From an uncultured Actinomycetes bacterium (GTDB taxonomy: Bacteria > Actinomycetota > Actinomycetes > Streptosporangiales > Streptosporangiaceae): a stretch of DNA of 64,000 nucleotides. The DNA is taken from contig CAVUBD010000001.1 of NCBI GenBank assembly GCA_963739615.1, positions 44,590 to 108,589 on the forward strand. The letters run 5' to 3'. A model generated the notes under the pieces. That model saw only the letters and a program-made list of their open reading frames with translations, did not search any database and had not been told where the DNA came from. The translations under genes and the position numbers were made by a program. The number at the start of each line of letters is the position of its first letter. Positions within the stretch are counted from its first letter, which is position 1. This document shows positions 55,905 through 58,900 of the stretch, one piece after another.

Positions 55905-58900
55905 ATGGCGGCTATGCGAAGGCTCGCCATCATCGACCGGGCCGAACCGGCGATGCGCTGCATATCCGCGGTCGCGGAGCTGAACCGCGAGTCCGCCGAA
56001 CAGATCACGACGATCGCCCTGTACCTGCCGGACGCGGCCCCCTGGATCGGCCGGGAGGCCGACGAAGCCGTGATGCTCGGCCGGGAGGCATCCGCAGGCG
56101 CCGATAGCCGCCTTGACCCGGCACGGCTGCTGACGGCGCTGACGGCAGCGCGTGCCGGCGCGCTCTGGGCGGGCTGGGGGCTCATCGCCGAGCCGGCGGA
56201 GCTGGCCCGGCTGTGCGAGCGCGAGGGAATCGTGGTCATCGGCCCTAGCAGCGATGTCTTGCGGCGGCTCGGCGACCGGGCGGAGCTGCGGCAGCTGGCC
56301 GCGGGAGCGGGTATTCCTGTCGCTCCATGGCCGGGCGGACCCGCCGATGAGCGCGCCAGCGCTGCGGGCTGGCCGCGCTATACCGAGGTCCAGGTGGTGG
56401 CGGATGGCCTCGGCACGGTCTGGGCGGTCGGCGTCCGCGACGCCAGCATCCGCCAGCGGAACCAGGCGGTCATCGTCGAGTCGGCTTGCGTGCCGCTCGG
56501 CGAGACCGGCGAGCAGGCGTTGCGCGACGCGGCTGTCCGGCTGTGCGCCGCCACGGGCTACCGCGGCACCGGCTTCATCGAATTCCTCGTCGATCCGGCG
56601 ACGCAGCACTTCTCGTTCGTTGATTTCAGTATCGGCACCCCAGGCGGGTATGCGGTCACCGAACTGACCACCGGACTCGACCTGACCAGGCTGGAGCTGG
56701 ACATAGCCTGCGGCCGGCGGCTATCGGGGGGCCCGCCGCCAGCTCGCGGGCACGCCATCGCGGCCCGCCTGGCCGCGGAGGATCCGGAGCGCGCTTTCGC
56801 CCCGGTATCGGGCCGCGTGTCCGCGCTGCGGCTGCCCGGCGGGGCCGGAATCCGCGCCGAGGCAGGTGTCACCGAGGATGAGGAGATCACGGCCGGGTCC
56901 GGTTCGCTGATCGCCAACGTGGCGGCCTGGGGACAGGATCGGCGCCAGGCGCTGGGCCGGCTGCACCGCGGGCTGACGCAGGCCATCGCCGTGGTGGACG
57001 GCGGGACGACCAACAAGGCCTTCCTGCTCGCCCTGATCAACCGGGCTGAGGTGGGAGCGGGCAGCTACGACCGCCACTGGCTCGGCCGGCTGACGGCGGC
57101 AGGCGAGCCTGCCGCGGCGCAGCATCCCGTGGCGCTGCTCCAGGCGGCCATCGAGGCGGCCGAATCTGACCAGGCCGCCGTGCAGGCGGCCTTCTACGCC
57201 GCCGCCGCCCGGGGTCGCCCGGAGCTGCCTGCCGATGCCGGGCACCGGATCGAGCTGAGCTTTCGCGGCCACGTCTACCGGATGCACGTGTGCTGCCTGG
57301 AACGTGGCCGTTACCAGGTCGACACCGGCGACGGCGTGGTTGATCTCGCCGTTCAGCGCGCCGGGCGCCATGAGCGGACCGTGACGTGCCACGGGCAGCG
57401 CCATCGCGTCCTGGTCGGCGATCAGGGGCCGAGGCTGGTCGTGGAGGTAGACGGCATTCCGCACGTCATTACCAGGCACAGCGGCGGGTACGTGCGCGCG
57501 CCGGCGCCCGCGCTTGTCGTAGCGGTTCATGTCGCGCCCGGCGATACGGTCCGGGCCGGGGATCCGCTCGTGACGCTCGAGAGCATGAAGATGGAGACGG
57601 CGATCACGGCTCCTCATCCCGGCCCGGTCCACGCGGTGTTCGCCAGCGTCAACACGTACGTGGAGACCGGAGCGGCCCTGGTACAGCTGCAGCCACCGGA
57701 TCAGCCGCAGCCGCAGGCCGCGGCCGGACCGCGGCTGCGCTTCGCCACCGAAGCCAGCCCGGATAACGCCAGCTCCGATGACGCCAGCTCCGATGACGCC
57801 AGCTCCGATGACGCCAGTGGCTTCGCGGCCCTGCGGAGCTATCTGCTCGGCTATGACGTCGGCGACGACGCTGCGCGGGCGCTGTCCGGGCGGCGCGAGG
57901 CCATGCTGGATCCGGTCGGCTCACCCGGCCACGGCCTGCTCGGCGAGGATCAGGAGCTGCTCGAGATATTCGCCGACATCACCGCGCTGGCCGGGCGCGA
58001 GCCCGACGAGGCCGCCGATGGGCACTCCCGAAGCCCGGAAGGCTACCTGTTCACCTACCTGGCCTGCCTCGATCCGGACCGAAGCGGGCTGCCTGAGCAC
58101 TTCCTCGATCGGCTGAAGAGCACCTTGGCGCGTTACGGCATCCAGTCGCTACGCCGCAGCCCGGAACTGGAGCAGGCGGTGGCGCGCATGTACCGGTCGA
58201 TCGCGCGGGTTCAGCGGGCCGCGCCGGTCATCACCGCGATCCTCGGCCGGTGGCTGTATCAGCGCGACACGCTGACGGCGCTGATGACCGACGAACGGCT
58301 CGCGGTGCTCGACCGCCTGATCACGTCGACGCAGCAGCGGCATCAGGAGGTCTGCGACCTAGCCCGCGATGTGCGCTTCAGGTACGTCGACGCGCCGGTG
58401 CTCGCCTCGCTGCGCGCCCAGGTCTACGCGGAAATGGAGCGCTGCCTCGATGAGCTCGCCGCGGACCCGGCCGCCGAGTCCGGTGACATCACCGACCGGC
58501 TCGTGTGGTGCCCGCTGCCGATGCGCGCGCGGCTGCGGGACAGGTACCGTGACGCGGACGCCGCGACCAGGGCCGCGCTGCTGCAGGTACGGGTGCGGCG
58601 GTTCTACCGGATTCGCGAGCTGCGCCAGCTGCGGTGCCAGCGATTCGGCCCGCACCTGGTATGCCTGGCCAGCTACGCCGAAGGCGGCCAGGACGTGCAA
58701 CTGGTTCACGGGTACGTGTCCCTGGGCGACCTGCCCGACTTCGCCGCGGAGTTGCGGCCGTTTCTCGGCACGCTGCCACCTGGCCAGCAGGTCGTCGTAG
58801 ATCTCGAGTCCTGGCGGGCCGGCGAGTGGCTGGCCGGCGGGCCGATGGGGGCCGAGGTCGCCAAGCTGCTCGCACGGACCGATTTCGGCCGGGTGCTACG

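Follow-up and report, generated by a model that had tools for sequence, protein, structure and literature searches.

A single-chain acyl-CoA carboxylase-like protein from a Streptosporangiaceae genome with a degenerate biotin carboxylase domain and a conserved biotin carrier and carboxyltransferase half

Biotin-dependent carboxylases are textbook three-function machines. In heteromeric acetyl-CoA carboxylases (ACCs) and in the two-subunit pyruvate carboxylase (PycA, PycB), the biotin carboxylase (BC) acts on the biotin carboxyl carrier protein (BCCP) of another chain. The sole characterised bacterial single-chain member is SACE_4237 from Saccharopolyspora erythraea, a homodimeric multidomain "eukaryote-like" acyl-CoA carboxylase that is essential and functions as a self-sufficient ATP-dependent ACC/propionyl-CoA carboxylase (Livieri et al., 2019; PMC6491548). 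The LCC architecture has an N-terminal carboxyltransferase (CT), a C-terminal BC-BCCP part, no central region, and a hexameric assembly (PMC6491548). Here we describe a gene from a 64,000-nucleotide stretch (the window) of contig CAVUBD010000001.1, which belongs to the genome of an uncultured Streptosporangiaceae bacterium (GCA_963739615.1; G000 below, 89% complete). The encoded protein resembles SACE_4237 in its architecture, but its BC domain has lost the lid and most catalytic residues.

The open reading frame at 55905-61307 on the plus strand encodes 1800 amino acids, as taken from the list of reading frames and their translation, and the N-terminus agrees with the starts of homologues in the alignment. 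Like SACE_4237, the protein belongs to the chains of about 1800-1900 aa with the order BC-BT-BCCP-central-CT, and it shares the ACC_central region, the biotinyl motif, and the CT group. The Pfam domain order, the ACC_central match, and the end-to-end homologues agree in placing it with the bacterial single-chain multidomain ACCs of the SACE_4237 type, within which it is a member of a second paralogous subfamily, apart from the SACE_4237-type ACC itself. An LCC it is not, as Pfam shows the opposite domain order and a central region. Intact proteins of the same subfamily (e.g., from Trebonia kvetii and Streptosporangiaceae metagenome-assembled genomes (MAGs); 58-70% identical) are homologous from end to end and have the same BCCP, central, and CT parts. 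The features of the gene are as follows.

55905..61307, plus strand: single-chain ACC-like gene, domain order BC-BT-BCCP-central-CT (Pfam; homologues of 1760-1900 aa)
55893..55898, plus strand: GAGGAG ribosome-binding site, 6 nt 5' of the ATG, read from the sequence
55905..56261, plus strand: BC N-terminal subdomain, aa 1-119 (Biotin_carb_N, E 1.8e-17, aa 4-119)
56262..56726, plus strand: ATP-grasp remnant, aa 120-274, which lacks the B-domain lid and has substituted catalytic residues (partial CPSase_L_D2 match)
56334..56375, plus strand: deletion junction, aa 144-157, GPADERASAAGWP, in place of the lid of about 61 residues (alignments; predicted local distance difference test (pLDDT) <50 at aa 144-153)
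56466..56468, plus strand: Ala188, equivalent to Lys238 (alignments)
56622..56651, plus strand: DFSIGTPGGY (aa 240-249) replacing E-x-N-x-R-x-Q-x-E-H, with E288, N290, R292, Q294, E296, and H297 all changed
56727..57086, plus strand: BC C-terminal subdomain, aa 275-394, mostly conserved (Biotin_carb_C, E 2e-20, aa 287-394)
57492..57692, plus strand: BCCP domain, aa 530-596 (Biotin_lipoyl, E 3.7e-14, aa 530-595)
57588-57590, plus strand: biotinyl-Lys K562 in ESMKMET (BCCP motif)
57885..59744, plus strand: central non-catalytic region, aa 661-1280 (ACC_central, 47.6 bits against a cut-off of 23.2)
59751..61247, plus strand: carboxyltransferase domain, aa 1283-1781 (Carboxyl_trans, E 3.7e-24)

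A preliminary description of this DNA, based on an alignment by eye, had considered the BC domain catalytically dead, and this view held under the checks it had proposed, namely profile alignment, a survey of homologues, and structure prediction. The Pfam model CPSase_L_D2 matched only at aa 157-274, covering profile positions 92-209 of 211 instead of the full ATP-binding domain, and the NCBIfam BC models matched in two pieces with scores far under their cut-offs. In phmmer comparisons with solved BC structures, residues 5-158 of the protein corresponded to BC residues 3-150 and residues 156-395 to BC residues 206-442, which leaves BC residues of about 150-205 without a counterpart. We also aligned the protein with 120 homologues and 80 genomic loci. 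Every intact protein has a lid segment of 61 residues, whereas that of the window protein has 6, so that it lacks about 55 residues. The lid deletion had thus been recognised correctly, while its size had been set somewhat too high at about 65 residues. The deleted stretch contains GYPV-x-VKA-x-x-GGGGRG, the Gly-rich loop of the B-domain lid, and a search of the whole 1800-aa sequence found no GGGG, as had been stated.

The catalytic columns were assigned in E. coli numbering by counting along the phmmer alignment to the Pseudomonas aeruginosa BC structure 2c00. K159 is deleted together with the Gly loop, K116 is exchanged for R, H209 for Y, and K238 for A (aa 188). In the segment of aa 240-249, the exchanges are E288 to D, N290 to S, R292 to G, Q294 to P, E296 to G, and H297 to Y. 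The earlier assignments of an Ala at the Lys238 position and of a lost Glu/Asn/Arg/Gln/Glu/His set were both reproduced, the former as A188 in the alignment to BC structures. Among H209, K238, E288, N290, R292, Q294, and E296, six of the seven are replaced non-conservatively, and E288 is the one that became D. E276 and R338 are retained in the window protein, although R338 is lost in 14 of the 21 members of its clade (see below), inside which some catalytic positions vary freely. None of the 158 intact homologues in the set deviates at these catalytic columns, and the intact members of the same subfamily keep the invariant KKGGHKEENRQEH catalytic set, unlike the window protein. The hallmarks of a competent BC, i.e., a lid with its Gly-rich loop, K238, E288, N290, R292, and E296, are all missing. 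Judged from these alignments, the BC domain is without its lid and most residues for ATP, bicarbonate, and catalysis, and the protein alone is predicted to have lost ATP-driven carboxybiotin formation.

Degeneration of the BC is conserved across a clade. Both the deletion and the degenerate motifs are common to the nearest 18 protein clusters (71-84% identical; 1759-1856 aa, with one of 2168 aa), which derive from NCBI, ENA, and JGI assemblies, and they also occur in the genomic orthologues of two other genomes of the genus, G002 and G016. Including the window protein, these 21 sequences form one clade with a support of 0.998 (FastTree, 1392 non-BC columns). It is a recent lineage that branches from among intact proteins of Trebonia and of Streptosporangiaceae MAGs. 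As 21 distinct orthologues have the same in-frame deletion in common, chance is excluded. When we defined a BC as dead if its lid is deleted or at least three catalytic columns are changed, the sample contained about 11 independent dead lineages, the window's clade included. An older dead clade with 13 members and a support of 1.0 comprises sequences from Nostocoides, Dermatophilaceae, Ilumatobacteraceae, Acidimicrobiia, Nocardioidaceae, and Kineosporia, and the other lineages are P0027+P0035, P0028/L043, P0077+P0089, P0116, L096, L092, L058, P0026/L044, and P0032. In P0028/L043, the lid is deleted yet K238 and the E288-H297 motifs are still there, whereas other dead lineages have kept the lid and lost the catalytic motifs, indicating that BC decay can start from either end. 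We take the gene for a genuine paralogue, with the look of an expressed gene, of the single-chain (eukaryote-like) ACC of bacteria, in which the BC has become a pseudo-domain. Our literature searches found no published description of a BC-dead single-chain ACC.

To compare the domains, we used the mean pairwise identity within the window's dead clade and within its intact sister clade, as well as the number of conserved columns (same residue in at least 97% of the intact proteins) that the window protein has kept.

BC N-terminal subdomain: identity 0.71 in the dead clade, 0.80 in the intact sister; conserved columns kept 10/15
ATP-grasp remnant: identity 0.72 and 0.85; conserved columns kept 27/47
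BC C-terminal subdomain: identity 0.74 and 0.83; conserved columns kept 24/29
BCCP: identity 0.85 and 0.84; conserved columns kept 11/11
Central region: identity 0.79 and 0.76; conserved columns kept 34/36
CT: identity 0.89 and 0.87; conserved columns kept 184/193

The ratios of nonsynonymous to synonymous substitution rates (dN/dS), calculated after Nei-Gojobori for the three genomic orthologues and for intact pairs, gave 0.41-0.48 for the BC in the dead clade versus 0.16-0.25 in intact pairs, and 0.17-0.20 versus 0.15-0.19 for the CT, with modest dS values of 0.2-0.6; as this method is crude for genes of 70% GC, it is the comparison between domains that counts. The biotin attachment motif E-S/A-M-K-M/L is present as ESMKMET, and the biotinyl-Lys is retained in every dead form examined (about 45). 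The older dead clade with its 13 members has kept 190/193 conserved CT columns. We judged CT conservation by the column statistics of the family, as phmmer alignments to the CT of yeast ACC were fragmentary. The CT domain of the window protein is conserved by its Carboxyl_trans match, its columns, and its dN/dS of about 0.2. It had been claimed that the ESMKMET motif and the CT blocks are intact; this is right for the motif, K562, and 184 of the 193 CT columns, but nine conserved CT positions are altered. By these measures, BCCP, central region, and CT are conserved as in working enzymes, and the BCCP and CT parts together are predicted to be a working half-enzyme.

For the BC remnant, the AlphaFold2 model of aa 1-450, calculated with a 37-row alignment, had a pLDDT of 82.4 and a predicted TM-score (pTM) of 0.82, and confidence was low only at the deletion junction (aa 144-153) and in the tail. 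The model represents a BC core without the lid, and BC domains were its best Foldseek matches, with target-normalised TM values of 0.86-0.89 for the BC chains 3jzf_A, 3g8d_A, and 5mlk_B, the B domain being absent from those models. As many as 44 of 45 dead forms have kept the Arg of the G-I-R motif, which is equivalent to E. coli R366. Mutagenesis by the Tong laboratory reportedly placed R366 at the dimer interface; PDB entry 2gpw, also among the Foldseek matches, is the F363A mutant of the same study. The remnant is thus modelled as a folded core lacking the lid, and selection on it is relaxed but not neutral. A scaffold role of the dead BC had been one of the options of the preliminary description, and the residual purifying selection seen in the dN/dS values is in agreement with it. 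Most likely, the remnant serves for dimerisation and as an architectural scaffold of the holoenzyme.

We surveyed the carboxylase genes of G000 and of the genus. The counts for the genus include the unpublished genomes G011, G025, G030, and G036, on which none of our conclusions rests. In G000, the window carboxylase is the sole gene with an ACC_central region. BC domains are encoded there by two BC-BCCP alpha subunits (594 and 617 aa), by CarB, and by a 448-aa stand-alone BC that is followed by a mini-BCCP, and there are four other CT genes. The stand-alone BC and its mini-BCCP are found on contig 12 of G000 at 24000-25582 (8001-9583 of locus L130) with no carboxyltransferase nearby, the neighbours being HD-domain proteins, a thiamine pyrophosphate (TPP) enzyme, and a GntR regulator. 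This BC is present with 84-93% identity in 20 of the 24 other genomes of the genus and with 67-75% identity in other families of the order and class. We rejected it as a dedicated partner acting in trans, as it is followed by its own mini-BCCP and is conserved in almost all genomes of the order, with or without a dead ACC. About 14 of the 24 genus genomes encode an intact ACC of the SACE_4237 type ("type B", 47-49% identical, ESMKLET); unlike the window protein, these orthologues of SACE_4237 have an intact BC. The type-B loci of the genus are L019-L028 and L033, and the copy on contig C7 of G006 (L025) contains an in-frame TGA. Both the dead and the type-B ACC occur in G002 and G016, and one dead plus one intact long ACC in the cultured Nostocoides australiense Ben110 and Kineosporia sp., whereas the dead form was the only one seen in G000 and three other MAGs. 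Allowing for the incompleteness of the MAGs, this makes an obligate heterodimer with an intact long ACC unlikely.

Directly upstream of the carboxylase, three genes for lipid assembly lie on the same strand and overlap or abut each other.

50625-51899, plus strand: wax ester synthase/diacylglycerol acyltransferase (WS/DGAT) (Pfam)
51824-53425, plus strand: HAD-phosphatase/1-acylglycerol-3-phosphate acyltransferase (AGPAT) fusion (Pfam)
53422-55782, plus strand: PlsB-type glycerol-3-phosphate acyltransferase (GPAT) (Pfam)

A scan for promoters and terminators gave no hits, and in particular no terminator-like site between this trio and the carboxylase. From this arrangement, the WS/DGAT, AGPAT, and GPAT genes would form an acylglycerol assembly operon with the carboxylase as its last gene. 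A gene for a family-III CoA-transferase is convergent on the 3' end of the carboxylase. On the other side of the trio, an acyl-CoA dehydrogenase (ACAD) is encoded on the minus strand (48801-49958), and a short open reading frame (49960-50373) is located between it and WS/DGAT.

The intact relatives in the same subfamily are also associated with WS/DGAT lipid genes, but they lie directly behind an ACAD and a KS-AT-KR-DH synthase, whereas no orthologue of this synthase was found in G000, where the dead ACC is linked to the operon for triacylglycerol in place of a synthase. In these relatives, the order is ACAD, the 2662-aa synthase, and the ACC, with the synthase stop overlapping the ACC start; WS/DGAT follows a few kb downstream, in one case accompanied by HAD-AGPAT and GPAT. 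The latter arrangement, with all three genes a few kb downstream, was seen in Nucisporomicrobium flavum (L056). In members of the older dead clade, too, the ACC follows a KS-AT-KR-DH synthase. The two genes are translationally coupled in dead and intact relatives, and malonyl-type AT motifs (GHSLG...HAFH) are found in the synthases beside dead and intact ACCs alike. AT specificity was thus rejected as a feature that could discriminate dead from intact forms, HAFH being present in all adjacent synthases. More generally, a trio is conserved that consists of an ACAD, a KS-AT-KR-DH synthase (about 2600-3300 aa, malonyl-type AT), and, with overlapping stop and start, a single-chain ACC, as in L055 (152-9972; Trebonia kvetii) and many loci of L040-L118, with hosts in Actinomycetota, Acidobacteriota, and Myxococcota-type MAGs. 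Different genes flank the dead orthologues of G002 and G016, namely those for a GMC oxidoreductase, acyl-CoA synthetases, and a Pat-type acetyltransferase.

With ATP-driven self-carboxylation predicted to be lost while biotin and CT are under selection, we infer that an external source of carboxybiotin would be needed. Our preferred interpretation, which we hold tentatively and at somewhat less than even chances, is that the protein is the BCCP and CT half of a carboxylase that forms malonyl-CoA after its biotin has been carboxylated in trans by a separate BC. A BC encoded elsewhere in the genome would carboxylate the tethered biotin, for which the two BC-BCCP alpha subunits and the stand-alone BC/mini-BCCP pair are candidate donors. 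The CT would then pass the carboxyl group to acetyl-CoA (or propionyl-CoA), and the malonyl-CoA would feed the adjacent genes for acylglycerol assembly in G000, be it of triacylglycerol or of wax esters. We rank carboxylation in trans first because the genomic company (malonyl-using synthases in relatives, the acylglycerol operon here) calls for net malonyl-CoA, because BC donors exist in the genome, and because the action of a BC on the BCCP of another chain is established. As in PycA (BC)/PycB (CT and BCCP) and heteromeric ACCs, a BCCP-CT chain would depend on the BC of another polypeptide; however, the BC partner in those systems is dedicated and usually adjacent, whereas here there is no nearby BC gene and a dead BC is present in cis. 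Several further observations weigh against a BC partner in trans. No BC gene was found within 10 kb at the 20 dead-ACC loci examined or within the 64-kb window, the stand-alone BC is present with or without a dead ACC and thus gives no co-occurrence signal, and the three orthologues of the genus do not share their local context. About 11 BC losses are easier to explain if no partner was needed. In addition, the exchanges E1396A, D1424E, H1498L, Q1636E, and F1656L are clade-specific changes at near-invariant CT positions (at least 97% in intact proteins), and N1139S is a further such change at a position conserved in at least 97% of the intact homologues; these exchanges are common to 15-19 of the 21 clade members, and none of them occurs in the older dead clade. 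The five CT substitutions could reflect an altered CT function.

Biotin enzymes without a BC are known in the transcarboxylase of Propionibacterium (12S, 5S, 1.3S) and in the Na+-pumping decarboxylases (Mmd, Gcd, Oad), and both have a counterpart among the alternatives. In an ATP-independent transcarboxylase, the reversible CT would take a carboxyl group from a carboxy-acyl-CoA such as methylmalonyl-CoA to biotin and then to acetyl-CoA, by which malonyl- and methylmalonyl-CoA pools would be equilibrated without ATP. We consider this rather unlikely, though it accounts for fully constrained biotinyl-Lys and CT in the presence of a decaying BC, does without a partner in agreement with about 11 independent BC losses and no nearby BC gene, and could relate the clade-specific changes at invariant CT positions to a functional shift. 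A single CT could also serve both half-reactions, as the efficiencies of SACE_4237 with acetyl- and propionyl-CoA are similar (PMC6491548). However, the older dead clade, with its 190/193 CT columns, shows no sign of a changed CT, and the synthases beside dead ACCs are malonyl-specific, while net malonyl-CoA would still require a stoichiometric carboxyl donor. Moreover, the 12S/5S/1.3S enzyme needs the 5S pyruvate-type CT, and Pfam detected one CT (PF01039) and no second CT component or 5S-type domain in the window protein. It is equally doubtful that single-chain ACCs were turned about 11 times into ATP-independent, biotin-dependent acyl-CoA:acyl-CoA transcarboxylases in which the dead BC is only a dimer scaffold. 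Both a BC acting in trans and a transcarboxylase had been among the options of the preliminary description; we tentatively favour the BC acting in trans over ATP-free transcarboxylation. A biotin-dependent malonyl- or methylmalonyl-CoA decarboxylase, in which the CT would make carboxybiotin and CO2 would then be released, had been suggested previously and is very improbable. A CT and BCCP without a working BC resemble the soluble part of Mmd and Gcd, and there are weak NCBIfam matches to the MmdC and MmdA models, but the sodium-pump type needs the OAD_beta membrane subunit (PF03977), which had no match in the 89% complete genome. Lowering malonyl-CoA would also make little sense in a lipid-assembly operon or beside malonyl-using synthases.

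The protein might also have no turnover of its own and be a non-catalytic or regulatory pseudoenzyme that binds acyl-CoA or biotin or modulates a paired active ACC. The coexistence with an intact SACE_4237-type ACC in Nostocoides australiense Ben110, Kineosporia sp., G002, and G016 and the retention of dimer-interface-type residues agree with such a role, but the dead form is alone in G000 and three other MAGs, and a CT constraint as in active enzymes together with the universal biotinyl-Lys exceeds the needs of binding, so that we regard it as improbable. Finally, the degenerate BC, the catalytic positions that are free to vary within the clade, and the nine changed CT columns could be read as a gene on its way to a pseudogene or as an artefact of assembly or annotation. 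This is hardly credible, as 21 orthologues from independent assemblies all have an uninterrupted 5.4-kb frame, every domain has a dN/dS well below 1, and the deletion is in frame and common to the clade.

Automatic annotation labels these proteins as "acetyl/propionyl-CoA carboxylase". Either the loading of BCCP by a BC in trans across unrelated complexes would be common in actinobacteria, or the proteins would perform ATP-free carboxyl-transfer chemistry, and transcarboxylases of this kind, if they exist, would serve lipid or polyketide synthesis by shuttling carboxyl groups between the pools of malonyl-CoA and methylmalonyl-CoA. Both answers would alter the annotation and engineering of malonyl-CoA supply for storage lipids and polyketides.

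Just past the BCCP domain, the chain contains an acidic Ser/Asp-rich linker with three (A)SSDD repeats at 57768-57818 of the window (aa ~622-638). The length of the tether that holds the biotin arm may depend on this linker.

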